Assembly: GCA_012522035.1 (NCBI GenBank)
Contig: JAAYLF010000356.1
Coordinates: 1 to 33,687, forward strand
Direction: 5' to 3'
DNA: 33,687 bases
Origin: Clostridiaceae bacterium
Lineage (GTDB): Bacteria > Bacillota > Clostridia > UBA1212 > DUPL01
The translations under genes and the position numbers were made by a program. Each line of letters starts with the position of its first letter. Position 1 is the first letter of the stretch. The notes beneath the pieces are model-generated. The model was not told where the DNA came from, ran no database searches, and was given only the letters and a program-made list of their open reading frames with translations. Below are positions 1 through 31,229 of the stretch, piece after piece.

Positions 1-1045
1 CCAGTGTAACGCTTAGCATCATCAAGTTCTTGGGATTTGAGCAGATATTCAAAAACTCGCTTACCGGACTCTCCATAGGCGGAGGAAAAGGCGGTGCCAA
101 CTTTGATCCAAAAGGAAAATCCGACAGGGAGATAATGGCGTTTTGCCAGAGCTTTGTTAATGAACTGTACAGACATGTAGGCAATGATATAGATGTCCCG
201 GCAGGAGATATTGGTGTCGGAGCAAGAGAAATAGGCTATATTTACGGACAATACAAAAGACTTACCGGTCTTTTTGACTGCACATTCACCGGTAAAGGAT
301 TATCGTATGGCGGTTCCCTTGTCCGCAAGGAAGCCACCGGATATGGTCTCGTTTACCTGACGGAGAAAATGCTGGAGTCAGTAAACACATCAATCAAGGG
401 AAAAACCATTACCATATCAGGATCAGGCAATGTAGCAATATATGCTGCTGAAAAGGCAACAATGCTTGGAGCAAAAGTTGTTACCATGAGTGATTCCAAT
501 GGATACGTTTACGATCCAAACGGAATCGATGTCAGCACGGTAAAACTTATTAAAGAGCAAAGAAGAGAAAGAATAAAGGAATATGTACGCTACTACGACA
601 CAGCAAGATACTACGAAAACGGTCTTGTTTGGTCAGTGCCTTGCGATATAGCACTTCCATGTGCGACACAAAATGAAATAACAGGCACGAGTGCTGAATT
701 GCTGGTCAAAAATGGATGTATGGCGGTAGCGGAAGGTTCGAACATGTCCACTTCCATCGAGGCAGTGGAAATCCTGCAAAAGAACAATGTCATGTATGTG
801 CCCGGCAAAGCTTCAAACGCAGGCGGGGTTGCAGTTTCCGCATTGGAAATGGCACAGGCAGGCGCACATCTTTACTGGACCTTTGAAGAGGTTGACCAAA
901 GCTCCAAGGTATCATGCACAGCATTTATACCAACATTTCAGAAACAGCGGAGCGATATGGCATGAAAGGAAATCTTGTTGCTGGCGCAAATATTGCAGGC
1001 TTCAAAAAAGTAGCGGAGGCAATGCTGCAGCAAGGTGTTGTTTAA
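1..1045 (+). pseudogene. gdhA: NAD(P)-dependent glutamate dehydrogenase; 5' end lies outside the window. The reading frame is broken by an apparent 1-nt deletion in the A-run at 898-900.
   Basis: The frame of ORF 30..965 is open from nt 3 (SVTLSIIKFLGFEQIFKNSLTGLSIGGGKGGANFDPKGKS..., GSGNVA dinucleotide fold). After ...WTFEEVDQ this frame gives 29 unrelated aa and TGA at 963-965. The -1 frame from nt 899 reads KLQGIMHSIYTNISETAERYGMKGNLVAGANIAGFKKVAEAMLQQGVV then TAA at 1043-1045, a typical GDH C-terminus. Confidence 0.85.
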
Positions 1046-1066
1046 TTGGCAACAGGAGGTACTGCT

Positions 1067-1543
1067 ATGAAAAATACTATTGAAAAGAAAATTGAATTGG
1101 GAAGACCTGTCATATCACCTGTTCTTGTTCCGGTAATACATAGAGCCACACCTAATTGTATTAACGAAACATTCATGGTGAATGGCACACCATACAAAGT
1201 CACTGCTCTCTCCTTTGGTGAACCTTTCGGGGTGGTAGTGGTTGAGGATGTAGATAACTTGAGTGTTTCCTCCATTGGTCCTCAACTTGCTTCACATCCC
1301 CTGTTCCCCCTAGGTGCAAATATTGTTTTTGCTCCGGTACTTGAAAACAACTGTGCAAAAGCAAGAGTATGGCAAAAGAATACAGGAGAAGTTCCCTTCA
1401 CACCCCAGGCATGCGGTGCCGCTGCAACGGCCCTTATGATGCTTCACAAAATTATGATAAATACTGTAAAAGTATATATGGGAGGCAGTCCTTATACGGT
1501 GGAATGGGATAAAGACTCCAACAATATGACAGTGCCGATCTAA
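1067..1543 (+). CDS. Single-domain DapF-like (diaminopimelate epimerase fold) protein, about half the size of DapF
   Basis: RBS caGGAGGt lies 7 nt upstream of ATG 1067. The segment SFGEPFGVVVVEDVDNLSVSSIGPQLASHPLFPLGANIVFAPVL...ARVWQKNTGEV...QACGAAATALMM...VKVYMGGSPYTVEW parallels the C-terminal DapF domain (GNPH..VDDVD...HP.FP...NV.F..V...R.WERG.GET.ACGTG...GG.L.IEW). Several catalytic-region positions are changed. Confidence 0.55.
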   Translation: MKNTIEKKIELGRPVISPVLVPVIHRATPNCINETFMVNGTPYKVTALSFGEPFGVVVVEDVDNLSVSSIGPQLASHPLFPLGANIVFAPVLENNCAKARVWQKNTGEVPFTPQACGAAATALMMLHKIMINTVKVYMGGSPYTVEWDKDSNNMTVPI

Positions 1544-1571: not shown

Positions 1572-3659
1572 TCATCCTATATAATCGGCAATGAACTCCT
1601 TTCTTGTCAAAACATCGGGCACAAACTTTCTCAATTTGCCGCCCAGATCATATACATCCACATGAAAATCAAACTTGTCAGGTTTGTGTTTTTCAATCTT
1701 GTCAACAACATCCCTTACGTCATTGGCATAGCTTCCAGGTATTGAAATATATATTGGCACAAAACTCAAATAGCGTATTTCATTTTCATACCCATACATT
1801 CTTAATGCGCAGGAATAGTACATAATCTCCTTTGTGCCAAGCCTGGGCAAAAACAAACATTTATCTCCTGCCTGCATCACATTGTCTCTAATCCTTAAAG
1901 CTGAAAATCTTTTCCGTGATGAAAAAAGCCTTTCCAAAGCCCTTTTGCCAAGATAATTATATGCTTTATCCGATGACAGAACCTCAAACATCTTTGCAAC
2001 CAGTTTGGATGGGACAATCAACCTCATGTCTGACTTGTATCTGCTTTCTGCATGCTCCTCATGCGGTTTTACATGAATGACATGAGAACTTTTGTCAATT
2101 GAAACAACCTGCCACGCTCTTCCTGCAAGGGAGAAGGTTTCTTCCTCTTCGTAAGGAACCATAACCTGCCCAATTTCCCTGTTCTCATAAATAACGGAGT
2201 ACTCTATGGCAGTTTCAAACACTGAAAAGAAATCAAAATTTGATATGATTGCTTCTCCAAGAGAACCTACATGCAGAAAACCTTCCTCCGTTCTTTCCAA
2301 AAGCCCGTCGTCGATCATTTTAAGCAGCATGATTCTGTAGTCTTCCTGGGATATGTTTCTGAAGGGACTCATTGTCAGCATGTATTCTGCAAGTTTTGCA
2401 GCTCTTGTCTCATGTACGGATGCAACATGGCTGAGTGTCTGATGCAGAAGGATTTCATATGGATACTGTCCTGCCACAACAGGTTCTATCCATCGTTCTT
2501 TTAAGTAAAGCTCAATAACTGCAATACATTTTACAAGCTCCCAATCTATCTTGTCTATAGGCATGTTGCCATAGCCTGGTTTCTCTCTAAAAGTAAAATA
2601 CATGACTCCTACACCGCTTTTTCTCCCGCTTCTTCCAAGCCTTTGAACAAAGGAGGATACACTAAGGGGAGCACCTGTCTGCACAATCATCTCCAAATCT
2701 CCCACGTCAATACCAAGCTCCAGTGTAAGGGTAGCTCCAACCACCGTCTTTACCTCCCCTGTCTTCATGGCCTTTTCTGCTTCCTCCCTCATGGATTTTG
2801 ATATGTTTCCATGGTGCACCTTGTATGCATCCATCGTTCCCTTCTCTTTGGCAATTCTCCTCAGGCTTGTAATGTTTTCTTCCACTTCTGCCTTGCTGTT
2901 TGAGAATATTATGCACTGCTTGTTCAATGTCCTATAATACAAGTCAAGGAAGAACTCATCTTCTTCCGGGTAATCCACCAAAAGCTTGACTCTTCTTCCC
3001 TTTTCCTCAATCAAGGGAACCTGACACGCTCTGTTTGTCCCGGCACTTAAATACTTTTCTGCATATGTGTAATCACCCAAAGTAGCGGACAAGCCTATGC
3101 GTATGGGTATTCTGTTAATATCCCTTTGAATTCTTTCAAGGATGCAAAGAAGATGTATCCCCCTGCCACTTCCCATAAAGGTATGAACCTCGTCTATTAT
3201 GATGTATCTCAAATCAGAAAACAGCATCTTTATTTCATGCCGTCTCAATACAAGCATTGCCTCTAGCGACTCGGGCGTGGTCTGCAGTATTCCTTTAGGA
3301 AAACTTCTGAGTTTCTCTTTACCGCCTGCAGAAGCATCCCCATGCCACTTGGTAACAGGGATAATTGCCTCCTTCAGCAAATCATTAAGTCTTTCAAACT
3401 GATCGTTAATAAGAGCTTTTAACGGACTTATATACAATACCGAAACGGAATCAATTTTTTCCTTGTATATCTTTGAAATAACGGGCAAAAAGGCAGCCTC
3501 CGTCTTCCCGGAGGCCGTGCCCGATGCCAATAGCAGATTGTCTTGTGTGTTGAAAATACATTCACAAGCAGCAATCTGTATGTCTCTCAGTTCCTTCCAT
3601 TTGCTTTTGTATATATACTCCTGTATGAAAGGAGCCAGTTTTTCAAACGCATCGTTCAT
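1572..3659 (-). CDS. SF2 DEAH-box helicase, Lhr/BrxHI-like (Shango SngC-like)
   Basis: Motif I ASGTASGKTEAAFLP, Ia YISPLKALINDQ, II IIIDEVH, III GLSATLG, VI FVQRLGRSGR. A C-terminal extension of about 280 aa has no motif I recognise. The start ATG overlaps the stop of the upstream ATPase gene (ATGA at 3656-3659). Confidence 0.85.
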   Translation of the reverse strand: MNDAFEKLAPFIQEYIYKSKWKELRDIQIAACECIFNTQDNLLLASGTASGKTEAAFLPVISKIYKEKIDSVSVLYISPLKALINDQFERLNDLLKEAIIPVTKWHGDASAGGKEKLRSFPKGILQTTPESLEAMLVLRRHEIKMLFSDLRYIIIDEVHTFMGSGRGIHLLCILERIQRDINRIPIRIGLSATLGDYTYAEKYLSAGTNRACQVPLIEEKGRRVKLLVDYPEEDEFFLDLYYRTLNKQCIIFSNSKAEVEENITSLRRIAKEKGTMDAYKVHHGNISKSMREEAEKAMKTGEVKTVVGATLTLELGIDVGDLEMIVQTGAPLSVSSFVQRLGRSGRKSGVGVMYFTFREKPGYGNMPIDKIDWELVKCIAVIELYLKERWIEPVVAGQYPYEILLHQTLSHVASVHETRAAKLAEYMLTMSPFRNISQEDYRIMLLKMIDDGLLERTEEGFLHVGSLGEAIISNFDFFSVFETAIEYSVIYENREIGQVMVPYEEEETFSLAGRAWQVVSIDKSSHVIHVKPHEEHAESRYKSDMRLIVPSKLVAKMFEVLSSDKAYNYLGKRALERLFSSRKRFSALRIRDNVMQAGDKCLFLPRLGTKEIMYYSCALRMYGYENEIRYLSFVPIYISIPGSYANDVRDVVDKIEKHKPDKFDFHVDVYDLGGKLRKFVPDVLTRKEFIADYIG

Positions 3660-4963
3660 AAAGTAAACTCCGCAAATTCATCTGATACATCATCATCTTC
3701 TGAGACTGCAAACTCAAAACCGCTAGAACCAAGAACCTCCTCAACGGTCTTGTCCGGGTTTTGATATAGGACATTCAATAGTTCAATAAAATCTCTAATT
3801 ATCTCTCTTGGAGTCATGTAGATTTGAGCGCCTATTCTCCCACTCTCGATTTCCCAAAAAGCGTAAATATCCTTTTGCGTAATTTTGGATTCATACCCAT
3901 AAAGGTCTGCATGAATGGAAGCAAGTTTTTCAAGCAGTACAAAGATTTCCTCAGCTTCAAGCGGAGCAAGCTTGATAACCGGTGCCATCATGTCTCCATC
4001 ATTGCTGGCGCTTATCCAGCCTGATTCAAGCCTTGTTCTTAAAGCTTCATAACTGTAGATCCCCTTTCTCGGGTCTTCCAGAGCCTGGGGTGTAAGAGCC
4101 ATGATTATTCCCATGTGACTTGCTTTCCCTTGCAATGTATCGTTGTACATCGAAAGAAGTTTATCATAGTTGTACTGCCTGGTTTGTGAATTAGGAATCT
4201 TGTATATGTTAACCAGTTCATCAACAAGCATCAGCAGTCCTTTAAAGCCGGCCTTGACGAGGAAGGATGCAAACAACTTCAGATAATCATACCAGTTGGA
4301 ATCGGTAATAATCTCGGACAGTCCCAAATCCCTTTTTGCCTCGGTTTTGGTTGAATACTCTCCCCTGAACCATCTCAGAACATTGCTCTTGTTTTCCTCA
4401 TTTCCATCCCTGTACGCATGCCAGTAAATACTCAGCGCCTTTGCAAAATCAAAACCATGCACAAGTTGCTTCAATTCGCCAACCGTTTCAAATATTTTCA
4501 ACTCAACTTCGAAAGACAGTTTTTCATCAAAAGCCGAAAGTTCCTTTTCCCTCATCACTTCCTGCTGTATTGCATATATCCATTTTTCCAGTATCAATGG
4601 CAAAGCTCCTCCATCGGGCGTTGTTTTTGTGGACTTGTTCTTCATAAGCTCTCTGTAGGTTGCAAGACCCTGCTTCTGTGAACCTGTGAATCTTCTTTCA
4701 GGAGACAAGTCCGCATCCACAACCACAAACCCTCTATCCATGGCATAATTTCTGATGGTCTGAAGGAGAAAGCTCTTTCCACTTCCGTATCTGCCAACAA
4801 TAAACCTAAACGAAGCTCCCCCATTCTGCACAATTTCAATATCGTGCAGCAAGGCATCAATTTCCTTCTCCCTGCCCACCGCAATATATCCAAGGCCAAC
4901 TCTTGGAACAACTCCACCTTTCAGTGAGTTCATTATTGCAGAGGCAATTCTTTTTGGAACCAT
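3656..4963 (-). CDS. DUF2791 / BrxD-like P-loop ATPase (Shango SngB-like)
   Basis: Walker A FIVGRYGSGKSFLL and Walker B GLLMLVDELVN. The N-terminus (IMNSLKGGVVPRVGLGYIAVGREKEIDALLHDIEIV..GGASFRFIVG) is typical of the family annotated as BREX system ATP-binding protein. SD GGGAGGG sits 7 nt upstream, inside the last codons of the TerB gene. Confidence 0.8.
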   Translation of the reverse strand: MVPKRIASAIMNSLKGGVVPRVGLGYIAVGREKEIDALLHDIEIVQNGGASFRFIVGRYGSGKSFLLQTIRNYAMDRGFVVVDADLSPERRFTGSQKQGLATYRELMKNKSTKTTPDGGALPLILEKWIYAIQQEVMREKELSAFDEKLSFEVELKIFETVGELKQLVHGFDFAKALSIYWHAYRDGNEENKSNVLRWFRGEYSTKTEAKRDLGLSEIITDSNWYDYLKLFASFLVKAGFKGLLMLVDELVNIYKIPNSQTRQYNYDKLLSMYNDTLQGKASHMGIIMALTPQALEDPRKGIYSYEALRTRLESGWISASNDGDMMAPVIKLAPLEAEEIFVLLEKLASIHADLYGYESKITQKDIYAFWEIESGRIGAQIYMTPREIIRDFIELLNVLYQNPDKTVEEVLGSSGFEFAVSEDDDVSDEFAEFTL

Positions 4964-4966
4964 ATT

Positions 4967-7900
4967 TTACCCTCCCAATAATTTTATTATTTCATCTGAA
5001 TAATCTTCAACCAACGTATGATCCACATCCACCACACTGTCGCCTATTGTTTCAATGGCCACATCGTTTATTCCGTCAATGACAACTTCCAACATTACAC
5101 CAAGTTTCCTGGCAACAGAATATGCATCCTCTTTGTTGGCTATTGCCTTTAACAAATGCATCTGAATATCATCCAGCATTCTTGCAAACAATTTATATGG
5201 ATTCTCTCCTGAAACATCCGTTATATCACAAATATCATATGTTTTCTCTTCCGCTGCTGCAACTTCTTCAACTTCTTCCTCTTCATCAACAACCAGCTTT
5301 TCAGTCAGCCTTTTTGATATTGCTCTTATCTCATCCAGCTTGTCAAAATCAATTTCCACCTTTTCAATCCTGGGAGTGGGTATCGCATCATCAACGAATA
5401 CTCCTTTTTCTCCCAAAACTTCTGCAGCAGCTGCCATAACGCAGTCGCCAAGCTTCTCCGCCCCTATGGTCTCAATCAAATACCTTATCTCATCACTTGT
5501 TTTATCCGTAATATCCAGAGGAGACTTGAGAGTTCCTTTGAAGGACAACAGATTTCTCAAGGCAATTTCTGCCAGTTTGACTATGATACCATATAGAACA
5601 TAAGTCGATTCTTTTAAACCACAGTATCCACAACGGCTTATGCATATTTCGTCCTTCCATTCATATGCCAAATAATCATTTATAACTGCCGTCTTCTTTC
5701 CTTTTCTTAATCTGACGTATTGCAAATCATTAAAAATCCCGTCTTTACGTTCAAGCTTTTGTCTTTCGCCCAATATATATGCAGGCAAAGAAAGGTCGTA
5801 TTTAGAAAAGAGTTCGTCCAGTTTTTCAAGCACCTTTGGCATGCAGAGATCTATAAGATAACCATCACTTCCTTTTCCAAAGGCACTTTCCCTTGCCCTG
5901 TATGGACTTTTTTCAAGTATGTACTTGCTGGCACAATCATAGTCGCCTTCAAAAATCTTGTACAGCCCGTAGATGGTATAATATCTCTTTGGAAACTTTT
6001 TCACATAAAATGAATAGGTTTTTTCCAAATCATAGGCAATGTATGCATCCATGATGACACTCTCGATCAAGTCATCGATATTGTCCGACACCTTGCTGTA
6101 CCCGCGCCAGAATTTAATCAGCTCGTCCATCAATTCTTCTTCATTCTCAACTCCTATCAAATTGACAAGCTCGGACAAATACAAAAGAACCATGTTTTTG
6201 TTTGCAGGCTTGAATATTCCCCGCCTTACATCTGATCTCCAATTCAGGTAGTAACGGTTTGCAAAATCATAATCATGAGAGACTCTCTGTTTCTCATATA
6301 CATCAACATCTTCAAGAAGGCAAGCCTGAATATAAAAATCAACAGGATTATAGGAATCATACCTATAAGTCTGCCTGCTCGAAATCCTTTGGTCTTTAGC
6401 TTCAGAACTTACCAATGAAATCAGATGCTTGTTTTGTTGTACGACTTCAGGATCATAGTATCTCTTCTTTCCACCAAGAACAAAGCTTTCCAATCTTTGC
6501 TTTTTCTTTATCTTCACATCCTTGTAAATCTCTTTGACCTCATTGGTCAAAATATTTACAAATCTCATGGATTCAATGATTTCTGCATGTTTTGTGTAGC
6601 TTTCCAGTCCGGAAAAGATAATATCAAAAGGAATATCTGAAAAATCTCCTTTTTTGTACCTTCTTGCTGCAGTGGCAATGATATTTACAACATACTCGCA
6701 GAACTTTTGCGCCCTTTTATCAAAATCAAAGCCGCAATAAAACAAGGAACCGCCATCAAAAATATACCTAATCCCCTTGTTTATACAAGTTTCTTCTTTT
6801 ATCCTGCACCCATTTTTATCAATCAGGTATCCAAGTTTCGAAAACGGTACTTCTTCTTTTACAACTTCGCCCAGCAGCAGGCTTGCAATCGAAAATGCAC
6901 ATTCCCTTTCAAGCAAGTCCGATACTTCCTTAAGCGCAGCAGGCAGAACTTTTTTAAGAACACTCTGAAATTCTTTGGAAGCACTTATTCTTATTCTTCT
7001 ACTTAGATACTCATACACATTTGTGTAATTGCCTTGAGCAATCTCATCCATAAGCAAGGAACTGCCAATATACCCTTCAGGAAAACTCTCACAAATCTTT
7101 TCAAAAGGCATGTCCAATCCCTTAAGGACATAAAACTCAATAATGGTGTTCTCCATTAGATTATCAATATCAGCAACAAGCCTCATACCCTTCCAGAATT
7201 CAAGAAGCTTTGAAAGAGCATCCAGCTCATCAATACAATTTGCAAGAAGTATTGTTTCGTTCAGATACAGTTTAATATATCCGATATCCGCCTTTTCATA
7301 AATCCCTTTTCTAATCTTTGTTCTCCATGAGAAATAGCCAAGCAGTTGCTGGTTTGTCATATGGGTATATGTAGGATATACATTTAAAAAATCCACCAAT
7401 ACCACATCTTCATTGTACTCAACCTTTTCCATGAATTTAACTTGTTTTAGAAATAACTCCGCACCATAAATCATTCCTTTGGGAGTTCTTGAAAGAGATC
7501 TCATCTTATCGAACTTGTCTTTAATCCGAATCTGCCTGTTGAGTTCAGCAACTTCTTCATGCATAACGATAGCTATTTGCTTATGGATTACCTTAACCAG
7601 TTCTCCTGTATCTATTATGCTGCGCATCTCTTCGTCCTGGTAAAGACTCGTATCATATATTTTCAAGGGTTTTTCACCAAGAATTTCCCTTATTCTTGAT
7701 TCCATATGCTTAAGTATGAAAGATATGAGTCTTGCATGTTTCCTGACAGGGAAGAGCTTTTCCGCATACAGGATGTTGTCTTGTACAAAATATCTTTCCG
7801 TTTCTGATATAACGTACTCAGTGAATCCATAGTCCTTTTTCACAAATGGATTGTATTTGAAAGGCTCGTAAACATCCACTTTTCTTTCAAAAAGCATTTC

Positions 7901-8596
7901 ATTAAATGCAACACCCTTTTGGGAAAAGTATTCACTCACACCTTTCATAACAGCATCAAAAGCACTGTCAATATATCTTCCCTTTTCACTTCTGTAAAAA
8001 GAGCTGCCATAAATTTGGTGCTGGGCACTCATTTTGTCGAAATACGGAAGAGTATGTTCATAATCACCGGAATATATTTTGTCCTCGTAAGACGCTATTT
8101 GAAACTTTTCATCAAAACTCTTGACTATGTTATTGAAAGGACCTGCAGAATGAAGGATGCAGTAGTCTTTGATAATGTAATAAAACTCAAGATCAGTAAG
8201 CTCGTCGCATTTGTTCCATAAATCAATCAGAAGTGCAAGCCCTTCCTCACAGGTTACACCCACCAGATTGACAAGCTCGTTTATGTATACAAGAATGTAT
8301 TCTCGTTTTGTTTGCTTGTAATTGTTCTCCAAAAACTGTGTGCGCCAGTACACATAGTGATAAAGATTGGACTCCGTCATGTCTTCGAAGGATCTAATGC
8401 TTCCAATACCATCCGGTCTGCCCTTGTACGAATGATAAAAGCGATAGTCCTTTAAAAAGTCTGCACATTTTAAAAAACGGACAAAAGGCTCCCCATTGTC
8501 CCTGGATAATTCACGCACCTTGCTGATTGCTTCGTGATCCAGTATCTTTTCTGACAACAATGTGAAAGCCTTTTCCTTTAAATCCTTTTCTTTCAT
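4967..8596 (-). CDS. 1209-aa TerB-N / TerB-C domain protein with three tandem TerB-N-like modules (Shango SngA-like)
   Basis: There are three internal repeats: LYHYVYWRTQFLENNY..YILVYINELVNLVGV (aa ~78), LLGYFSWRTKIRKGIY..YIKLYLNETILLANC (aa ~418) and RYYLNWRSDVRRGIF..VLLYLSELVNLIGV (aa ~781). The C-terminal ~130 aa (EIDFDKLDEIRAISKRL...acidic linker...LEVVIDGINDVAIETIGDSVVD) match my memory of the TerB-C domain. Start ATG 8596 overlaps the amidase stop (ATGA). Confidence 0.75.
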   Translation of the reverse strand: MKEKDLKEKAFTLLSEKILDHEAISKVRELSRDNGEPFVRFLKCADFLKDYRFYHSYKGRPDGIGSIRSFEDMTESNLYHYVYWRTQFLENNYKQTKREYILVYINELVNLVGVTCEEGLALLIDLWNKCDELTDLEFYYIIKDYCILHSAGPFNNIVKSFDEKFQIASYEDKIYSGDYEHTLPYFDKMSAQHQIYGSSFYRSEKGRYIDSAFDAVMKGVSEYFSQKGVAFNEMLFERKVDVYEPFKYNPFVKKDYGFTEYVISETERYFVQDNILYAEKLFPVRKHARLISFILKHMESRIREILGEKPLKIYDTSLYQDEEMRSIIDTGELVKVIHKQIAIVMHEEVAELNRQIRIKDKFDKMRSLSRTPKGMIYGAELFLKQVKFMEKVEYNEDVVLVDFLNVYPTYTHMTNQQLLGYFSWRTKIRKGIYEKADIGYIKLYLNETILLANCIDELDALSKLLEFWKGMRLVADIDNLMENTIIEFYVLKGLDMPFEKICESFPEGYIGSSLLMDEIAQGNYTNVYEYLSRRIRISASKEFQSVLKKVLPAALKEVSDLLERECAFSIASLLLGEVVKEEVPFSKLGYLIDKNGCRIKEETCINKGIRYIFDGGSLFYCGFDFDKRAQKFCEYVVNIIATAARRYKKGDFSDIPFDIIFSGLESYTKHAEIIESMRFVNILTNEVKEIYKDVKIKKKQRLESFVLGGKKRYYDPEVVQQNKHLISLVSSEAKDQRISSRQTYRYDSYNPVDFYIQACLLEDVDVYEKQRVSHDYDFANRYYLNWRSDVRRGIFKPANKNMVLLYLSELVNLIGVENEEELMDELIKFWRGYSKVSDNIDDLIESVIMDAYIAYDLEKTYSFYVKKFPKRYYTIYGLYKIFEGDYDCASKYILEKSPYRARESAFGKGSDGYLIDLCMPKVLEKLDELFSKYDLSLPAYILGERQKLERKDGIFNDLQYVRLRKGKKTAVINDYLAYEWKDEICISRCGYCGLKESTYVLYGIIVKLAEIALRNLLSFKGTLKSPLDITDKTSDEIRYLIETIGAEKLGDCVMAAAAEVLGEKGVFVDDAIPTPRIEKVEIDFDKLDEIRAISKRLTEKLVVDEEEEVEEVAAAEEKTYDICDITDVSGENPYKLFARMLDDIQMHLLKAIANKEDAYSVARKLGVMLEVVIDGINDVAIETIGDSVVDVDHTLVEDYSDEIIKLLGG

Positions 8597-9411
8597 CTTT
8601 TGGTTACATCATTCTCCTTGAGAAACTCTACAATTGCATTCACAATTTTATCCTGATATTCATCAGATACAAGCTTCTTCTCTTCCTCTTCATTGGTCAA
8701 ATATCCAAGCTCAAGTATCATGCAGGGACCTTCCGTCCAGTTGATACTTGTATAATTGTCGCTTCTTCGGACATTTCTGTTGGCAGCTCCTGTAGCATTT
8801 ACAAGCTTCTCCATAAGCATGTTTGCAATTGCAAGCTCATAGTTTGCAAGCTTCTTTGTTTCCTCGCTGCCATCTCCCTTGTCCCTTATATATATCTCCA
8901 TGCCGTGCACGTCCTTGTTATTCACTCCATTCAAATGGAGCCTGAGGGTCAGATGTGCTCCGAACTCATTGGACATAAGGGCTCTTTCCTTGTTGGATAT
9001 GTCCACGTCATGAGACTCTCTTGTCATAAGTACTTCCGCCCCTGCCTTTTCAAGAGCATCACGCAGTTTAAGGCCAATCTTCAAAGTCAGGATATATTCA
9101 GGTGTACCTGTTATTGCACCTGTTGTACCTGCCGCAATCTTTCTCTTTTTTTCACTGCTCCAGGGAGCCAGTTCCTCAAAATCATTGTTCGCTTTGCCCT
9201 GATGACCAGGATCAATGCATATCTTTAGACCATGCAAAGGAAGAACTTCGGTGGGAGAAGGAGTTGGTTCGTCTCCTTCTCCCGGTGTTTTATCAATATT
9301 ATCAGCTCCTGTTGGTTGTGCTGTTTCATCTGCTGGTACATTACCGTTTGCACATCCTGTAACAAGGAGTGCAATCAATACCAAAATTGCTGTTATCTTA
9401 TGTGTTTTCAA
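8593..9411 (-). CDS. N-acetylmuramoyl-L-alanine amidase (Amidase_3 family), lipoprotein
   Basis: TTG start with SD AAGGAG 9 nt upstream. Signal peptide plus lipobox LLVTGC. A Pro/Thr/Glu-rich linker precedes CIDPGHQGK...AAGTTG...LMTRE...LHLN, characteristic of Amidase_3. Confidence 0.85.
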   Translation of the reverse strand: MKTHKITAILVLIALLVTGCANGNVPADETAQPTGADNIDKTPGEGDEPTPSPTEVLPLHGLKICIDPGHQGKANNDFEELAPWSSEKKRKIAAGTTGAITGTPEYILTLKIGLKLRDALEKAGAEVLMTRESHDVDISNKERALMSNEFGAHLTLRLHLNGVNNKDVHGMEIYIRDKGDGSEETKKLANYELAIANMLMEKLVNATGAANRNVRRSDNYTSINWTEGPCMILELGYLTNEEEEKKLVSDEYQDKIVNAIVEFLKENDVTKR

Positions 9412-9427
9412 ATCGTACTACTCCTTC

Positions 9428-11893
9428 TTATTCAATAGTATAGCTGCCCGGTTCGTTAAGATTGATTCTTATACGATTGCCATCCCTTTCAAACTCGGAT
9501 ACGGGAACAACCTTGTCATTTATTCTTATCGTAGAATTTTCATCCTTGTTTATGAGGGGGAAGAACAATGAAGCCCTTGTGGGAACTGTGCAGTTATAAA
9601 CAAAGGTGCCGTTTTCCATTCTCCAGCTACTCTTTATTAGTCCGCTGGCAGATTCATACTCCGCCTCAACAAAGGTGATGTTCTCCTGACCTTCCGTCAG
9701 CTCATCCTTGGTTCTGGTATCGGGCATCGGTCTTAAGACCACATGTTTGAAACCAGGTTCGTCAAAGTCATTGTTTATGCCCGCCATATACTTGTACATC
9801 CACTCCAACACAGCACCGTATGCATAATGGTTGAAGGAGTTCATGCCGGCATCTCCAAAGCCCTTTTCAATCGTATAGGAGTTCCATCTCTCCCAAATTG
9901 TTGTCGCACCCTGATATACGCTGTACAGCCATGAGGGATCTTCCGTCTGCAGCAGCAAAGAGTACGCAATATTGCTTTTTCCAAACTCACTCAAGGTCTG
10001 GTTCAATATACCTGTTCCGATAAAACCGGTACTCAACCTGTATCCGTTGTCCTTTATCTTCTGCTCCAGGCAGTCCGCCGCTTCCTGAACATAGGATTCT
10101 GGCAGCATGCGTGTCTTTAGGGCCAGGAGATATGCTGTCTGGGAGGTTTCCTTAAGCTTTCCATTCTCGTCAAGGAATTTATCCTGGAAATGCTTCTTGA
10201 TATCCTCATATAGCTTTGCATACTCTACTTCCTTTTCCGAACCTATAGCCCTTGCCATGTCCCTCATGTACATGGTGCTCAAGGCAAACATGCAGCAGGA
10301 GATGTATTCCTTGTCGGTAGGCTCATAACTTAGCCAGTCTCCATACACTGCATTGCCTCCACCAAGGCCAAAACTCCTCAAGTACTGGATGTACCTGTCC
10401 ATAGCTTCAAAATTGTCCTCTATTATCTTCTTGTCACCATACATGCGGTAGATTACATATGGAACAATAACACCGGCATCCGCCCATGCAGCGTTGCCCT
10501 CTCCCACCACTCTGACACGGGGAGCCACATCAGGGAAAGCCCCATTTTCACTCTGGCAGTCCCTCATATCCTGCATCCACTTGTGGAAGAATTCGCGAAC
10601 GTCCGCATTGTAGCATGCCGCATTGACAAATATCTGCGTATCGCCTGTCCAACCAAGCCTTTCGTCTCTCTGCGGGCAGTCAGTAGGTATGCTTAAGTAG
10701 TTACCTCTCTGTCCCCATATCACATTACTGATCAGCTTGTTTACATCCTCACTGGATGTTCTTATTCTGCCTGTTTCCTTTGTATCCGATCCTACTACGC
10801 AGGCTTTGATAAACAGTATGCCAATGTCGTCATCCGCTGTAATTTCTGTGTATCTGAAACCGAAGAAGGTATGGGTTGGATTGTATGTCTCTCCAAACTC
10901 GTCCCCTCTCAAGATGTACTGTATCCTTGATTTTGCACTCCTGTAGTTTTCAGTATACAGACTTCCCTTCGGTCCGTCATTGCCTCTTGATTTGTCTCCG
11001 CTGTCATTGAGCATTTCAGCAAATCTCACAAGAAGACTTGTACCTCTTTTGCCTTTCACCGTGAATCTTGGCCATCCAACCAGGTTCTGACCAAAGTCTA
11101 TCAAAAGGGTTTGTCCCTTCCTTATTGTGACTTCCTGTCCTATCTCAAACTCATTTACATATACAACTTCGCCATAATCCGTTCCGTTGTCCCTTATTCC
11201 CTCATACAGCTTCATGCTGACAGGAAGCATGTTCAAAAATTCCCTCTCCCTGATTGCAGGCCCTATATGCTTTGAGACCTCACCTTTAAAGTTTGTATAA
11301 ATTAATGCATTGTTCCAATCCGAATCATCAAAACCGGGATATTTAAAGGCATCATTGTCTATTCTTGCATCGTAGAACTCTCCATCCCAAATATCCGCAT
11401 TCAAAACCGCACCGCCGACCTTGCATTTCCAGTCCTCGTCTGTACTGACATGGCTTGTGGTGCCGTCCGCATAAGTAAAATCAAGCCTTGCAAGAAAAGC
11501 CACGTTATCCTTCGGATAAGTATCGATATTGATTCTTCCCTGCCACCAGCCAGGAGACACAACTCCTGTTATGCAGTTTACGCCCTCTGTAAGATACTCT
11601 TTTACATCGTATTCATAATACAGAACTCTCTTTCTGTATTCTGTCCAGCCGGGCTTCAAAACATCCTTTCCCACCTTCTTGCCGTTTATATACAGTTCGA
11701 ATATGCCCAATGCAGTTGCTTTGACTACAGCATCTTTTATCTCTTTCGATACTGTGAATTCTTTTCTGAAAATAGGCAGTCCACCACCGTTTTTCAAAGG
11801 TGCCTTCCTGTAATCGGCAGTGCTCTGATGCTCCCAAGGATTTACTCCATTTTCCACTCTACGGTATTCAATACTTATCCATTTTGCTTCCAT
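9428..11893 (-). CDS. Alpha-L-rhamnosidase, glycoside hydrolase family 78 (no signal peptide)
   Basis: GH78 signature PTDCPQRDERLGWTGDTQIF. The N-terminal rhamnosidase domain pattern is present (ELYINGKKVG..LKPGWTEY..RVLYYEYDV). Length is 821 aa. Confidence 0.85.
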   Translation of the reverse strand: MEAKWISIEYRRVENGVNPWEHQSTADYRKAPLKNGGGLPIFRKEFTVSKEIKDAVVKATALGIFELYINGKKVGKDVLKPGWTEYRKRVLYYEYDVKEYLTEGVNCITGVVSPGWWQGRINIDTYPKDNVAFLARLDFTYADGTTSHVSTDEDWKCKVGGAVLNADIWDGEFYDARIDNDAFKYPGFDDSDWNNALIYTNFKGEVSKHIGPAIREREFLNMLPVSMKLYEGIRDNGTDYGEVVYVNEFEIGQEVTIRKGQTLLIDFGQNLVGWPRFTVKGKRGTSLLVRFAEMLNDSGDKSRGNDGPKGSLYTENYRSAKSRIQYILRGDEFGETYNPTHTFFGFRYTEITADDDIGILFIKACVVGSDTKETGRIRTSSEDVNKLISNVIWGQRGNYLSIPTDCPQRDERLGWTGDTQIFVNAACYNADVREFFHKWMQDMRDCQSENGAFPDVAPRVRVVGEGNAAWADAGVIVPYVIYRMYGDKKIIEDNFEAMDRYIQYLRSFGLGGGNAVYGDWLSYEPTDKEYISCCMFALSTMYMRDMARAIGSEKEVEYAKLYEDIKKHFQDKFLDENGKLKETSQTAYLLALKTRMLPESYVQEAADCLEQKIKDNGYRLSTGFIGTGILNQTLSEFGKSNIAYSLLLQTEDPSWLYSVYQGATTIWERWNSYTIEKGFGDAGMNSFNHYAYGAVLEWMYKYMAGINNDFDEPGFKHVVLRPMPDTRTKDELTEGQENITFVEAEYESASGLIKSSWRMENGTFVYNCTVPTRASLFFPLINKDENSTIRINDKVVPVSEFERDGNRIRINLNEPGSYTIE

Positions 11894-11941
11894 GATCTAT
11901 CCCCCTATGTTCCTATGGTACACTTGTTCCAATTTCCTTGT

Positions 11942-11970
11942 ATTATATATTCACACAATCTTTGTGTCAA
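11942..11970 (-). promoter_or_regulatory. Consensus sigma-A type promoter upstream of the GH78-amidase-TerB-ATPase-helicase gene string
   Basis: The minus strand reads TTGACA (11970-11965), a 17-nt spacer, then TATAAT (11947-11942). The -35 box overlaps the trmFO stop codon. SD GGGGGA precedes ATG 11893. Confidence 0.6.
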
Positions 11971-13262
11971 CCGTTCAAGCTTATCTTGATATTTTCAATT
12001 TCCTCAAGAGCATTTTCGGAAATCTTCCTTCTTCTCTCAGCCTTGTTTTTTATTCTAATATCCCCACTGGCAATTATGCCAAAATTAATTCCCATGGGCT
12101 GAAAATCCTTGCCCGGGTAGGTTGCCACATAATTTGCAAGAGCACCTATCGCAGTGGATTCCGGAAAGATTATTGGCGTCTTTCCCTGAAACAGTCTTGC
12201 AGCATTTATGCCTGCCACAAGTCCGGAGGACGTGGAATCCATATATCCTTCCACCCCGGTAATCTGTCCTGCAAAAAATATATTCTTACCTATAACTTTG
12301 TAAGTCCTGTCCAAAAACTTGGGAGACTTAAGGTATGTGTTTCTATGCATAACTCCGTATCTTGCATACTCTGCATTTCTAAGAGCAGGAATAAGGCCAA
12401 ATACTCTTTTCTGTTCTCCAAACTTGAGCCTTGTCTGAAAACCAACAATATTGTATATTGTGCCTTCGAGATTCTCCTGTCTCAGCTGTACAATGGCATA
12501 ATATTTCTTGTCAAACCCCACAGGTTTCAAAGGGCCAAACCTTAATGTGTCCACACCTCTCTTGGCCATTTCTTCAATTGGCATGCATCCCTCATAAAGC
12601 CTCAAATCATCAAAATCCTCAACATATGCAGTTTCAGCATTTATGAGGTTGTTATAAAATTCGAGGTATTCCTCTTTGGAAAGGGGGCAGTTTATATAAT
12701 CATCATCACCTTTTCCGTATCTGGAACCTCTGAATGCATGATTCATGTCAATGGATTCAGCATACACAATGGGGGCAGCAGCATCAAAAAACGAAAAAGA
12801 GGGACAAAGCTTTGCAATTTCCTGTGACAAGGCGTCACTGGTCAATGGCCCTGTTGCGTATATCGTTATTTCATCCTCAATTATCCTTGTTACTTCTTCC
12901 CTTGATATTTCAATCAAAGGATGACTCTCAATTCTTTCCGTTACAAGTCGGGAAAAAAGCTCCCTGTCTACAGACAGCGACCCTCCTGCAGGCACTTCGG
13001 CTTTCAATGCACAATCCATTATCAACGAGCCTAAAGACTTCATTTCTTCCTTTAACAAGCCGGAAGCATTTTCAATATTCCGTGCCTTAAAGGAATTGCT
13101 GCAGACAAGTTCTGCAAAATCTACGCTTTTATGCGCAGGTGAAAACTTTTTTGGTTTCATCTCATAAAGCCTTACAGGCACACCCCTTTCAGCTATCTGA
13201 AAGGCTGCCTCGCACCCTGCAAGACCTGCTCCAACCACATTAATCCTTCTGTCCATATGCAT
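11967..13262 (-). CDS. trmFO: Methylenetetrahydrofolate--tRNA-(uracil54-C5)-methyltransferase TrmFO (Gid)
   Basis: [37 protein letters not shown]...CSNSFK is the FAD-binding TrmFO N-terminus. The chosen ATG at 13262 overlaps the topA TGA (TGATG). The longer ORF start at 13304 would lie inside topA. Confidence 0.9.
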
Positions 13263-15379
13263 CAGCCCTTGCCATTCTCCACTACATCCATCTTGTAGGA
13301 GCATTTTTTATTACTGCAGACTATCTGTCTGCCGCCTCTTTTATTCACATACTCAAGATGCTCACCGCACTCGGGGCACTTTTCTCCTGTTGGCACATTC
13401 CAGGACTGGAACTCGCAATCCGGATAATTTGAACATCCTACATACTGACGTCCTGTCTTTGTTTTTCTGTATATCAAAGGCTTGCCGCAGGAAGGACAGT
13501 CAACCCCCACCTCTTCAACAATGGGTTTTGTGTTCCTGCACTCGGGAAATCCGGGACAAGCCAGGAATTTTCCATACCTGCCGGTTTTGTACACCATCAT
13601 TCTTCCGCATTTTTCACAAGGCACATCGCTTACCGGATCCTCCAGCTTTACTTTTTCAAGCTCCTTCTCAGCTTTTTGTACCTGCTTTTCAAAAGGCTCG
13701 TAAAAGTCTCTGATAACAGAAACCCAGTCTTCCTTGCCTTCGGCAATCTTGTCAAACCTGTCTTCAATATTTGCTGTAAACTCCACATTTACAATATCAC
13801 TGAAACTCTTTTTCAGAAGGTCATTAACTATCCTTCCAAGTTCTGTTGGATACAAAACCTTCTTTTCCCTTCTAACATATCCTCGTGCAAGAATTGTTGA
13901 GATGGTAGGAGCATAAGTACTTGGTCTTCCAATGCCGTGTTCTTCCAAAGCCTTGACCAGGGAAGCTTCCGTATACCTTGGTGGCGGCTGGGTAAAATGC
14001 TGCTTTTTATCCAGCTTGTGAAGATTCAAAACCTCGCCTGCTTCCAGAACCGGCAGCATCTTGTTTGCCTCTTCTTCATTGTCGTCATTGTCATCGCTCT
14101 TGGAATCCGTATAAATTGCGGTGTATCCCTTGAACTTCAACGTGCTGCCTGATGCCTTGAATATATAATCTCCCTTGGATGTGAGTATGTCAACACTTAC
14201 CGTATCATATACCGCTTCAGCCATCTGGGAAGCCACGAACCTTTCGTATATCAGTTTGTATAGTTTGTACTGGTCGTTTGTCAGTTTGTCCTTTATCTTG
14301 TCAGGAGCATGTTCAAGATAAGTTGGCCTGATTGCCTCATGGGCATCCTGCGCCTGATTCTTGTTTTTGTAAACCCTTTTCTTTTTGGGAACATACTCGT
14401 CTCCAAAATTGCTTTTAATGTATTCAAGAGCCTGGTTTTGAGCATTATCCGAAATCCTAACAGAGTCCGTCCTGATATACGTAACAAGACCGGTAACACC
14501 CAGTTTACCACCTAAATCAATACCTTCATAAAGCATCTGCGCAACCAGCATCGTCTTTGACGCAGGGAACCCAAATCTTCTGGATGCTTCCTGCTGCAGT
14601 GTGCTGGTGGTAAAAGGTGGTGCAGGGCTTCTCCTTCTTTCGGATTTCTTTATGTCAACAACCTTGAACTCACTGTTTTCAATCTCATTGTAGATGGCTT
14701 TTGCCTGTTCCTCGTTTTCAACCTCTATTTTTCCACCTTGTTTTCCGTGGAATTTGGCCTCAAACGTATCCTTTTTGCCAAACTTTGACAACAAGGCGGT
14801 AATGGACCAGTATTCCTTTGGCTCGAAGGCTTCTATCTCGTCTTCCCTGTCGCATATAAGTCTTGTGGCAACAGACTGCACCCTTCCCGCACTAAGTCCT
14901 TTTTTAACCTTTTTCCACAGAACAGGACTTATCTTGTAGCCAACAATCCTGTCCAAAACACGTCGTGCCTGGTAAGTGTCCACCAGATTCATATCTATCG
15001 GCCTTGGATTCTTAAAACCTTCCAAAACAGCATTTTTTGTTATTTCATTGAATGTTACCCTGCAAGGCTCATTGGCATCAATATCCAGCAGCTGTGTCAG
15101 ATGCCACGAAATGGCCTCTCCTTCCCTGTCCGGGTCCGTTGCAAGATATACCTTTTTTGCCTTTCCGGCTTCCTTCTTAAGGGTTTTAATCAAGTCTCCC
15201 TTTCCTCTTATGTTAATATATTGAGTTTCAAAATCATTCTCTATATCAATTGCCAACTTGCTTTTTGGCAAATCCCTTACATGTCCTGCCGATGCATCGA
15301 CCTTGTAACTTCTGCCTAAAAACTTCTTTATTGTATTTGCTTTTGTGGGTGACTCCACAATAACAAGATAATCAGCCAT
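13262..15379 (-). CDS. topA: DNA topoisomerase I with three C-terminal zinc ribbons
   Basis: [22 protein letters not shown] (Toprim), an active-site region, and three CxxC...CxxC fingers. SD GGAGG lies 9 nt upstream of ATG 15379. The upstream extension of the ORF has no SD. Confidence 0.95.
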
Positions 15380-15453: not shown

Positions 15454-16545
15454 TTATATTACAACCTGCAGATTACCATGTCTATCTCTTCCCAAAATCC
15501 CCTTCACTTCCAAAATCGTCGTAATTGCAACGACTCTTGCACTGTCCAGTCCGGTTATGCTGCTGATTTCCTCGATCTTTACTCCTTTGTAAATCAAATC
15601 TGCAACCACTGCCTCCTCCTTGTCCAAACCATTCAGCCAGCCAACAGTCCCTGCAATTTTCCTTCCTTCAACCAAATTCAAACCTTCCAAAACATCTATA
15701 TGGCTGGTGGCAATACAAGCACCAGCCTTTATCAGGCTGTTACACCCTTCGCTGTAGCTTGAATCAATATTGCCAGGTACGGAGAATATATCCCTTCCCT
15801 CATTTATTGCAAAGTTAACCGTTATCATGGCACCGCTTTTCTTTCCTGCTTCACAAACAAGAAGCCCTTTGCCAAGACCTGCAATTATTCTGTTTCTTGC
15901 CGGAAAATGATGCTTAAGTGGCATTGTTCCTGGCGGGTGCTCTGAAAGAACAAGCCCGTTCTCTTTTATCCTGTAATATATGACCTCGTTCTCCATAGGA
16001 TAAATATTGTCAGGCCCTCCTCCCAATACAGCAATCGTGTATCCTTCAGCATCAAGACATCCCGCATGCGCTCTGGCATCAATTCCTTTTGCCATTCCGC
16101 TTACAATCCCAACACCGTGTTTTGCAATATTGAAGCACATGTCATAAGTGACTTTTCTTCCGTATGCGGAACACTTTCTTGAACCCACCACCGACAAGAG
16201 AGTCGTGTTTTTATCCGGCAATTTACCATAATAGTACAAAACGAAGGGCGGGTCAAATATATTTTTCAAATCCTCAGGATAATCCTCCCTGAAGACATGC
16301 GTTATCTTAACCCCCTTCTCCAAAACCCTTTCATAAATCCTTGCTGCTCTGTCCTTAATGGATTCATCTAGTAGTCTCTGACATAATAACCGATTATTCC
16401 TTAATTCACAAGTCACATCAGAATAACTTCCAACCAAATAAGCTTCTCTCAAACTCCCATAGTTTTCGACCAGCAAATTTGCAATTTTGCCTGCAGGTCT
16501 TCCAAGCAAAGTAACCCAAATATGTACAAGATTATCCGAATACAT
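15454..16545 (-). CDS. dprA: DNA-processing protein DprA (Smf)
   Basis: SVVGSRKCSAYGRKVTYDM...GIVSGMAKGIDARAHAGCLDAEGYTIAVLGGGPDNIYPMEN is the DprA Rossmann core. SD GGAGG lies 8 nt upstream of ATG 16545, which overlaps the upstream gene's TAA. Confidence 0.9.
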   Translation of the reverse strand: MYSDNLVHIWVTLLGRPAGKIANLLVENYGSLREAYLVGSYSDVTCELRNNRLLCQRLLDESIKDRAARIYERVLEKGVKITHVFREDYPEDLKNIFDPPFVLYYYGKLPDKNTTLLSVVGSRKCSAYGRKVTYDMCFNIAKHGVGIVSGMAKGIDARAHAGCLDAEGYTIAVLGGGPDNIYPMENEVIYYRIKENGLVLSEHPPGTMPLKHHFPARNRIIAGLGKGLLVCEAGKKSGAMITVNFAINEGRDIFSVPGNIDSSYSEGCNSLIKAGACIATSHIDVLEGLNLVEGRKIAGTVGWLNGLDKEEAVVADLIYKGVKIEEISSITGLDSARVVAITTILEVKGILGRDRHGNLQVVI

Positions 16546-17153
16546 TAAACAATCCTCCTTTTTAAATGTAAATAGCACGATACATATCCCAAGGCTTCAG
16601 CCACATCAAACCTGGATATCGTCTCTCGAAACTCAAGATCCGCTATTGTTCTTGCCACCCTGACCACCTTGTCCATGTCTGTCATGCTGCATTTAAAAAA
16701 CTTCTGCGCATCTTTTAAAAATTCCTGTGCCTCAAAATCCATCCTGCAATACTTTTCAAAACCATTTCTACTCAGATTTCCGTTATACTTTGACTTATTG
16801 TTTCTGTACCGCCTTTCCTGCATCCTGTGCACAGCATTTATCCTTTCACAATCCACATCCTGCCTCAAATCATTAATCGGCACGTACATGTCCGACAAGT
16901 TTAGTTGTCTGGATGGAATGTTGGCAAGTGTGTACTGTATGTCCAAATCAGAACATGTACAAGCTCCCCTGAAAAACCGACCACATTTGCAGGGCAAGCA
17001 ACAAGCAATAAAAAATTTTTCTATTGTAATTGGCATTAAATCAACACTGCCAAAAAAAATGCAGTTGTGTTTTCCTGACAAAGCTATTTCCAAAACCCTC
17101 TTCAAACTATACATGGCTTTTCCTTTCTGAATAATAAAAAAACCCTCCATCAT
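16545..17153 (-). CDS. ComM/YifB (Mg-chelatase-like) remnant lacking the Lon-like N-domain and the AAA+ core
   Basis: KRVLEIALSGKHNCIFFGS parallels KRALEIAAAGGHNLL.GPPGSGKT, but the Walker A motif is absent. CLPCKCGRFFRGACTC matches the NPCPCG...C.C zinc motif. VVRVARTIADLEFRETISRFDVAEALGY matches the Mg_chelatase_C end. SD AGGAG lies 9 nt upstream of ATG 17153. Confidence 0.55.
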   Translation of the reverse strand: MMEGFFIIQKGKAMYSLKRVLEIALSGKHNCIFFGSVDLMPITIEKFFIACCLPCKCGRFFRGACTCSDLDIQYTLANIPSRQLNLSDMYVPINDLRQDVDCERINAVHRMQERRYRNNKSKYNGNLSRNGFEKYCRMDFEAQEFLKDAQKFFKCSMTDMDKVVRVARTIADLEFRETISRFDVAEALGYVSCYLHLKRRIV

Positions 17154-27646: not shown

Positions 27647-27682
27647 AAAAAGGCTAATGGCATATAAAGCCATAGCCTTTTT
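27647..27682. terminator. Bidirectional rho-independent terminator (cupin gene / dpnB-like gene)
   Basis: aaaaaggcta(a)tggc-atataaa-gccatagccttttt forms a stem with one bulged A. A- and T-runs flank it on both sides. Confidence 0.7.
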
Positions 27683-29338: not shown

Positions 29339-29339
29339 T

Positions 29340-30182: not shown

Positions 30183-30224
30183 TAATATTTCCCCATCTCT
30201 ACTATAACTTATTGTACATCCCCT

Positions 30225-30253
30225 ATTATAACTACAATTTTGCAAAATAACAA
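30225..30253 (-). promoter_or_regulatory. Predicted promoter of the dpnM-dpnA-dpnB operon
   Basis: The minus strand reads TTGTTA (30253-30248), a 17-nt spacer, then TATAAT (30230-30225). It lies in the 78-nt gap below the stop of the fourth methyltransferase gene. Confidence 0.5.
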
Positions 30254-30260
30254 ACTTGTA

Positions 30261-31155: not shown

Positions 31156-31229
31156 TGCGGAATGGTGTAACGGTAGCACGAATGACTCTGACTCATTTTG
31201 TCTGGGTTCGAATCCTAGTTCCGCAGCCA
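31156..31229 (+). tRNA. tRNA-Gln (anticodon CUG), CCA encoded
   Basis: Hand-folded cloverleaf: acceptor TGCGGAA/TTCCGCA (U1:A72), discriminator G73, CCA; D stem GTGT/GCAC; anticodon stem AATGA/TCATT with loop CT-CTG-AC; T stem CTGGG/CCTAG with loop TTCGAAT. Length is 74 nt. Confidence 0.9.

Follow-up and report, generated by a model that had tools for sequence, protein, structure and literature searches.

Introduction

Shango is a widespread three-gene antiphage system, made up of the TerB_N/TerB_C protein SngA, the ATPase SngB and the helicase SngC, for which defence has been shown in Escherichia coli (Millman et al., 2022) and in Pseudomonas aeruginosa PA14 (Johnson et al., 2022/23). Two of its proteins have counterparts in type 2 BREX (bacteriophage exclusion), namely BrxD and BrxHI. 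A comparative analysis from 2026 (PMC12839542) describes BrxD as an ORC/Cdc6 AAA+ ATPase that is tightly linked to BrxHI, and proposes that it is the loader or activator of BrxHI. Here we examine a putative Shango locus in a 33,687-nucleotide stretch of DNA from an uncultured Clostridiaceae bacterium (assembly GCA_012522035.1, contig JAAYLF010000356.1, positions 1 to 33,687), hereafter the window. A first-pass annotation, made by reading this DNA unaided by database searches, had recognised the triad, and had noted both its protection of E. coli and P. aeruginosa from phages and the lack of a known mechanism. The literature supports the former, and a preprint of September 2025 still calls the role of the TerB-type protein, and the working of TerB-type defence proteins, unclear.

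We conclude that the locus is very probably a complete and apparently functional Shango system, SngA-SngB-SngC, located at the 3' end of a five-gene unit, and that the amidase and rhamnosidase genes of the same unit are probably neighbours only. Shango itself has already been described, and PADLOC or DefenseFinder would already call the locus Shango. What sets this copy apart is a putative sensor that, uncommonly, is triplicated, together with the unusual make-up of its operon.

Results

Identification of the locus as Shango

Shango is defined by members of the SngA, SngB and SngC families that are adjacent, co-oriented and ordered A-B-C, and each of these features was found here. The three minus-strand open reading frames (ORFs) called for the triad in the first-pass annotation proved exact to the nucleotide (Table 1). 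Among the PADLOC defence profiles, the best match of each protein was the Shango-specific one (SngA, 4.8e-66; SngB, 6.8e-182; SngC, 7.7e-201), with the alignments spanning residues 2-435 of 435 in SngB and 3-693 of 695 in SngC. The next-best matches were the BrxD (5e-48) and BrxHI (3.8e-124) profiles of type 2 BREX, and the Shango profiles outscore these by 603 to 162 bits for SngB and by 668 to 414 bits for SngC. The annotation had proposed to check its assignment with PADLOC and with Pfam, and the Pfam models were likewise all positive (TerB_N, 1e-33; TerB_C, 5.3e-14; BrxC_BrxD, 1e-161; DEAD and Helicase_C). Its description of the system as clostridial also stands, the nearest genome (L001) being a Clostridia metagenome-assembled genome (MAG). 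The same gene order and coupling recur in about 80 metagenomic Shango loci. Scans with Pfam, PADLOC and signal and transmembrane (TM) predictors revealed no nuclease, TM or toxin domain in SngA, SngB or SngC.

The homology of SngB and SngC to BrxD and BrxHI, seen in the PADLOC scores above and in the NCBIfam BrxD match (2e-47), is what would be expected if the locus derived from a type 2 BREX (Pgl) system, as a remnant or satellite with the BrxD-BrxHI dyad as sole survivor. However, no PglZ, PglX, BrxC or PglW was found among the Pfam-scanned ORFs of the window, the Sng profiles outscore the BREX ones in bits by a factor of 3-4 for SngB and of 1.6 for SngC, and a TerB_N/TerB_C protein precedes the dyad, as in the Shango loci examined. 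SngB also falls under the NCBIfam BrxD equivalog cut-off (162 versus 350 bits) and is for that reason not BrxD proper. We therefore rejected a BREX remnant as extremely improbable, and take Shango as the identity of the locus in what follows.

Table 1. Features of the Shango locus and its unit in the window. Percentages are identities to L003 and L007; dN/dS, the ratio of nonsynonymous to synonymous substitution rates, is relative to L004, a relative about 90% identical. aa, amino acids.
Feature	Position	Strand	Description	Identity L003 / L007	dN/dS vs L004
sngC	1572-3659	minus	695 aa; Lhr/BrxHI-like superfamily 2 (SF2) DExH helicase; winged-helix domain and C-terminal domain	68% / 62%	0.149
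sngB	3656-4963	minus	435 aa; P-loop ATPase, BrxC_BrxD/DUF2791 family	77% / 74%	0.135
sngA	4967-8596	minus	1209 aa; three TerB_N-containing modules, then one TerB_C tail; putative sensor or scaffold	45% / 37%	0.25; 0.56-0.69 in TerB_C region
SngA module 1	7547-8596	minus	aa 1-350; TerB_N 1e-9; hmmsearch domains aa 41-238 and 239-347		
SngA module 2	6497-7546	minus	aa 351-700; best-conserved TerB_N copy, 1e-14, profile positions 11-202 of 207		
SngA module 3	5417-6496	minus	aa 701-1060; together with the tail, a canonical single-module SngA		
SngA acidic linker and TerB_C tail	4970-5416	minus	aa 1061-1209; TerB_C 1e-15 (segment scan)		
Lipoprotein N-acetylmuramoyl-L-alanine amidase	8593-9411	minus	272 aa; Pfam Amidase_3 2.5e-41	64% / 57%	0.13
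GH78 (glycoside hydrolase family 78) alpha-L-rhamnosidase	9428-11893	minus	821 aa; first gene of the unit; Pfam Bac_rhamnosid6H 3e-117	82% / 74%	0.06
Predicted sigma-70 promoter	11942-11970	minus	TTGACA-17 nt-TATAAT; 12/12 consensus match		
Hairpin	1542-1566	strand-neutral	Perfect 10-bp stem, between convergent sngC and dapF-like remnant		
topA					0.064
trmFO					0.057

SngA is a triplicated form of a single-module protein

The annotation had described SngA as a giant TerB-N/TerB-C protein. The TerB_N repeats and the TerB_C tail were recovered, and the size can now be accounted for: self-comparison and alignment revealed three tandem modules of about 350 aa, each consisting of a TerB_N domain and an extension of about 110-150 aa, and SngA is unusually long because this unit is triplicated ahead of a single TerB_C tail. 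The Pfam TerB_N match exceeds its gathering cut-off and falls in three stretches, with TerB_C present once. In module 1 the WRxxxR motif reads WRTQFL, without the second of its family-invariant Arg residues, and it is to module 3 and the tail (aa 722-1207) that the 528-position PADLOC SngA profile aligns. The name "TerB" applies less well than had been supposed, in that TerB_N and TerB_C are present and the TerB core domain (PF05099) is absent from the Pfam matches to SngA, whether the whole protein (E up to 0.01) or four segments of it (E up to 1) were scanned; "TerB protein" describes SngA only loosely.

When 1.84 billion protein representatives were searched exhaustively with HMMER, 1590 SngA relatives emerged at E <= 0.001, only 18 of them at E <= 1e-30; a word-indexed homologue search found just two. 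Among the best 150 of the 1590, one module was counted in 121 and two in about 20, and three were seen in this lineage (P0001, P0002, P0123) and in one other (P0195). Orthologous copies of the modules are 41-56% identical across lineages, as compared with 23-25% for paralogous copies, which indicates that the triplication is old and that each copy has been maintained.

No sequence relative of SngA was found in the PDB. A 105-sequence alignment yielded an AlphaFold2 model of aa 701-1209 in which helices predominate and a single small sheet is present (predicted local distance difference test score, pLDDT, 82; predicted template modelling score, pTM, 0.68), and Foldseek searches with it against the PDB and BFVD gave no match at E <= 0.001. 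When the tail was modelled by itself, residues 54-127 had pLDDT >90 and the last ~75 aa formed a bundle resembling a helix-turn-helix (HTH). The tail region is acidic (isoelectric point 4.4), so that DNA binding by it is unlikely, and we tentatively assign the modelled TerB_C tail a docking role, as an HTH-like domain, rather than one in DNA binding.

SngA is the most rapidly evolving component

Of the five genes in the unit, sngA evolves fastest (Table 1). It also carries a run of 709 nucleotides (nt) in module 3 (5371-6079) that is identical to L004, within a region where overall identity is about 90% and the surrounding stretches are at 81-96%; correspondingly, the synonymous divergence (dS) from L004 is 0 over codons ~851-1050 and 0.66-0.73 over codons 501-650. 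The exact run, and the juxtaposition of these dS values, indicate recent recombination within the gene, making sngA a recombination mosaic. Its GC content is 0.36-0.39, versus 0.42-0.47 in the flanks. We infer that this pattern is as expected of a component that meets a variable phage-derived ligand.

SngB and SngC retain the motifs of an ATPase and a helicase

The Walker A (GRYGSGKS) and Walker B (MLVDE) motifs that had been read in SngB are present and are invariant in our SngB alignment (A1). The same is true of the SngC motifs GTASGKT, DEVH, SAT and QRLGRSGR, which are invariant in a 42-sequence SngC alignment, leaving helicase motifs I, II, III and VI intact. No sequence relative of SngB was found in the PDB. 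For SngC, the closest solved structures are MrfA/YprA (6znp, 1e-30) and Lhr (5v9x, 1e-29), and Pfam matches DEAD, Helicase_C and, weakly, WH_Lhr. The curated models of Lhr-type repair helicases score SngC far under their cut-offs (TIGR04121, 210 bits against 850; PRK13767, 204 against 849). A homologue search with the C-terminal 255 aa of SngC returned no relatives.

Within sngC, a strong terminator-like hairpin with a T-run (3494-3517, minus strand) was noticed on the Walker A codons (GTASGKTEAAF). It was rejected as a real terminator and is probably a by-product of the codons, as its counterparts in L003, L007 and other loci are weaker.

A probable five-gene unit with the triad at its 3' end

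The annotation had described the three genes as translationally coupled. At the sngA/sngB junction (...GGAGGG TAA AAT ATG) 3 nt separate the stop from the ATG and a GGAGG Shine-Dalgarno sequence lies within the sngA coding end, and the sngB/sngC overlap reads ATGA, both as it had claimed. The coupling of the triad is thus upheld, though the unit extends further upstream than was recognised: the amidase gene, too, is joined to sngA by an ATGA in which its stop overlaps the sngA start (8593-8596), an overlap that had been overlooked. It is kept in L004 and L003, and replaced in L007 by a 4-nt gap. The promoter listed in Table 1 lies upstream of the rhamnosidase gene and is the sole 12/12 sigma-70 consensus match in 18.2 kb. 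Its -35 box overlaps the trmFO stop codon, and both hexamers are kept in L001, L004 and L006, the spacer between them having diverged. Because of the amidase-sngA overlap and this single consensus promoter, the transcription unit probably comprises five genes, running from promoter through rhamnosidase, amidase, sngA, sngB and sngC to the hairpin, with the triad at the 3' end.

A terminator had been called directly after sngC. The hairpin itself is well supported (5-nt loop, about -18.5 kcal/mol, z = -4.65, and 0/200 shuffles folding as well), and its predicted role as a bidirectional terminator is plausible and no stronger, since just three U follow the stem in place of a long U-tract; the terminator scan, whose T-run rule is unmet here, did not list it.

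Elsewhere, in the metagenomic Shango loci L067 (3700-6951) and L092 (11311-17067), about 3-6 kb are inserted between sngB and sngC, and in L092 the sequence upstream of sngB showed no SngA-like ORF.

The amidase and rhamnosidase are probably neighbours

The amidase bears a lipoprotein signal and a lipobox (...LLVTGC). The rhamnosidase contains N, concanavalin-like and C domains in addition to Bac_rhamnosid6H, and has neither a signal peptide nor a hydrophobic N-terminus, as befits a cytoplasmic GH78 enzyme; it is 74-82% identical in L003 and L007, where it likewise adjoins the amidase gene upstream. Such an arrangement raises the question of a Shango variant of four or five genes, with the exported amidase, and perhaps also the rhamnosidase, as a working component. 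The amidase could then link peptidoglycan damage or remodelling at phage entry or lysis to the cytoplasmic SngABC, or could be a lytic effector. Speaking for such a variant are the ATGA overlap of the amidase stop with the sngA start, an adjacency retained in three lineages down to 37-45% SngA identity, the exclusive co-occurrence of amidase, rhamnosidase and triple-module SngA, the single promoter that seems to serve all five genes, and the membrane surveillance that the literature has proposed for TerB-type proteins.

However, the closest amidases outside the Shango-bearing lineages (48% identity; L009, L010, L094) sit at the corresponding position, immediately following trmFO, whose stop overlaps their start, and are followed by a divergent glycosyltransferase, with no rhamnosidase and no Shango, so that inherited synteny is the simplest explanation. 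Conversely, neither an amidase nor a rhamnosidase was found in the flanks (up to 10 kb) of about 75 other Shango loci, these being metagenomic loci with an SngB 59-71% identical to ours and a one-module SngA of 428-789 aa. Other amidase homologues (~50% identity) sit in unrelated TetR-linked or YchF-linked contexts. The amidase is, moreover, exported, whereas no signal or TM segment was detected in SngA, SngB or SngC; the cytoplasmic GH78 rhamnosidase is of a kind typical of plant-glycoside use; and all lineages that possess the five-gene block might belong to a single family, in which case the co-occurrence may reflect a single event. On balance a variant with a working amidase seems improbable. 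Given the non-Shango relatives after trmFO and the Shango loci that lack it, we regard the amidase as probably an inherited trmFO neighbour to which the triad was appended, co-transcribed with Shango and not a component of it, and the rhamnosidase as probably a metabolic passenger.

A bolder version, which we also think unlikely, would make SngA a fused multi-sensor in which each TerB_N module has its own phage cue, with the amidase recruited in this lineage as a fourth, envelope-facing component. If true, Shango would couple cell-wall events to a cytoplasmic ATPase-helicase engine, and what TerB_N/TerB_C proteins sense would become open to mechanistic study for the first time.

The locus occupies a fixed chromosomal site

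The window consists of chromosomal core DNA, with the gene order gdh and a dapF remnant of half length, then the convergent sngC-sngB-sngA-amidase-rhamnosidase block, then trmFO, topA, dprA, a comM remnant and nrdR. L001 has the same arrangement, with 90% nucleotide identity over window positions 1579-14957, as do the metagenome contigs L004-L006 and L014, and the five-gene block, common to three diverged lineages, recurs in L003 and L007. Among these sequences (a MAG and contigs, no complete genomes), sngABC occupies the same site in the window, L014, L001, L004-6, L003 and L007, and it is absent from L009 and L094, which retain trmFO-amidase. On the other side, homology to L001 ends exactly at the sngC stop, beyond which lie pyrimidine-biosynthesis genes in L001 and an AraC regulator in L003; the alignments thus mark the boundary at 1572-1579 as a rearrangement breakpoint. 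No SngB relatives were found in IMG/VR viral contigs. Taken together, the locus looks like one at a fixed chromosomal site that has been vertically inherited within the lineage, and not like a recently mobile island.

A fixed location beside dprA, topA and trmFO in all lineages whose flank is visible, no relative in viral contigs and no adjacent mobile-element gene would also suit a housekeeping DNA-repair or processing module of this neighbourhood, consisting of an Lhr/MrfA-like helicase, an ATPase loader and a scaffold. The closest solved helicases, MrfA and Lhr, are indeed repair enzymes, and the original prediction for the triad, reportedly made by Anantharaman et al. in 2012, is said to have been "DNA processing". 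Yet L009 and L094 retain dprA-topA-trmFO-amidase without the locus, and the downstream flank varies among close relatives, with homology ending precisely where sngC does. In addition, sngA combines a higher AT content than its flanks with fast evolution and the structure of a recombination mosaic, all hallmarks of conflict genes; the Shango profiles fit far better than the Lhr-type repair models, which remain well under their cut-offs; and homologous triads protect against phages experimentally. A housekeeping role is accordingly very unlikely, and defence by Shango is the reading that we retain.

Other features of the window

Shango had been named as the most likely defence system in the window. 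It is not the sole one: a DpnII-type type II restriction-modification cluster is encoded at 27682-31004 (minus strand), with a restriction endonuclease (Pfam DpnII, 3e-104) and three adenine or N4/N6 methyltransferases, beside tRNA-Gln (31156-31229) and about 19 kb from Shango.

Further observations concern genes nearby. The dapF-like ORF that converges on sngC (1046-1543, plus strand; 165 aa) has one of the usual two DAP_epimerase domains. Between nrdR and dprA, a comM/Mg-chelatase-like ORF (16545-17153, minus strand) comprises the C-terminal domain only, with 202 aa (189 aa in L004); L009 carries at this position a gene encoding 494 aa or more, and the window ORF resembles a remnant, itself conserved, of some longer gene. 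At 18166-19929 (plus strand) a 587-aa protein, whose gene is beside nrdR in L004 and L005, matches the MutS domain V ATPase only and no PADLOC profile. Finally, core genes surround a large serine recombinase (22826-24268, minus strand; Resolvase, Recombinase and zinc-ribbon domains), which may mark an integrated element.

Discussion

Proposed mechanism

We suggest, tentatively, a mechanism whose details as a whole are possible rather than probable. SngA would be the specificity or sensor subunit, its three old and individually conserved modules recognising phage-derived cues and its triplication broadening the range of recognition. This role is suggested by the fastest evolution in the unit, the recombination mosaic, and a module number of 1, 2 or 3 across the family. 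The single acidic, HTH-like TerB_C tail would dock SngA to the engine, coupling it to SngB. SngB, as an ORC/Cdc6-type AAA+ ATPase, would serve as an ATP-dependent switch or loader that places or activates SngC, an Lhr-type 3'-5' DExH translocase, on phage DNA or replication intermediates, where unwinding or stripping would block phage replication with no dedicated nuclease. The loader-helicase idea draws on the proposal for BrxD-BrxHI (PMC12839542) and on the closest solved relatives of SngC, Lhr and MrfA. The tight translational coupling fits a stoichiometric complex.

Several points weigh against this interpretation of the locus or parts of it. No published mechanism for any Shango system was found in the literature, and phage protection has been tested in the homologous E. 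coli and P. aeruginosa systems only. The docking role of the TerB_C tail is a guess; the top 50 Foldseek hits of the tail model are all HTH or wHTH (winged HTH) domains, and these matches are weak (E 0.3-2.6). The fast evolution of SngA would equally fit a target of phage inhibitors, or relaxed constraint. No family match was found for the C-terminal ~230 aa of SngC, which could conceal an effector activity. The promoter is a consensus match and the terminator a fold prediction, and nothing beyond that. Lastly, the amidase-sngA overlap persists down to 45% SngA identity, which makes a functional link possible.

Comparison with known systems

Bunzi BnzA and Dionysus DinB likewise take their names from Ter-family domains, and surveillance of the membrane or of stress has been considered as a possible role for them. 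In those systems the TerB core comes with TM partners or pore-forming toxins, whereas SngA has TerB_N and TerB_C only, with no TerB core or TM segment, and its partners are an ATPase and a helicase. The Lhr-core and MrfA/YprA repair helicases share with SngC the RecA1-RecA2-winged-helix core and the DExH motifs; SngC differs from them in its low scores against the curated models, in its unmatched C-terminal region, and in being obligately linked to SngA and SngB. Closer still is the BrxD-BrxHI pair of type 2 BREX/Pgl, a homologous and tightly linked ORC/Cdc6-type ATPase and Lhr-like SF2 helicase for which the loader-helicase relation was proposed. The present locus lacks the PglZ, PglX, BrxC and PglW of that system, and hence a methylation-based module for distinguishing self from non-self, and a TerB_N/TerB_C protein replaces the rest of BREX.

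The validated Shango systems of E. coli and P. aeruginosa PA14 share with the present locus all three protein families, their order and their tight coupling, and likewise lack a recognisable nuclease or toxin. Compared with them, the triad described here is known from sequence, in an uncultured Clostridia bacterium, and is appended to a rhamnosidase-amidase pair under a single consensus promoter, in a fixed position behind trmFO. SngA has three modules and 1209 aa, against a profile length of 528 and a single module in most relatives (430-650 aa), and SngC is ~50 aa shorter than in other metagenomic Shango loci (695 versus about 745 aa).

The locus leaves the definition of Shango unchanged. 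It adds uncultured Clostridia to the range of Shango, in a fixed chromosomal position that is useful for comparing presence and absence, and by its rapid evolution, mosaic structure and variable module number it points to SngA as the arms-race component of the system. As a natural three-module sensor, this SngA offers a handle on whether the TerB_N units set phage specificity, in a system that otherwise resembles the validated ones in its families, their order and their coupling.

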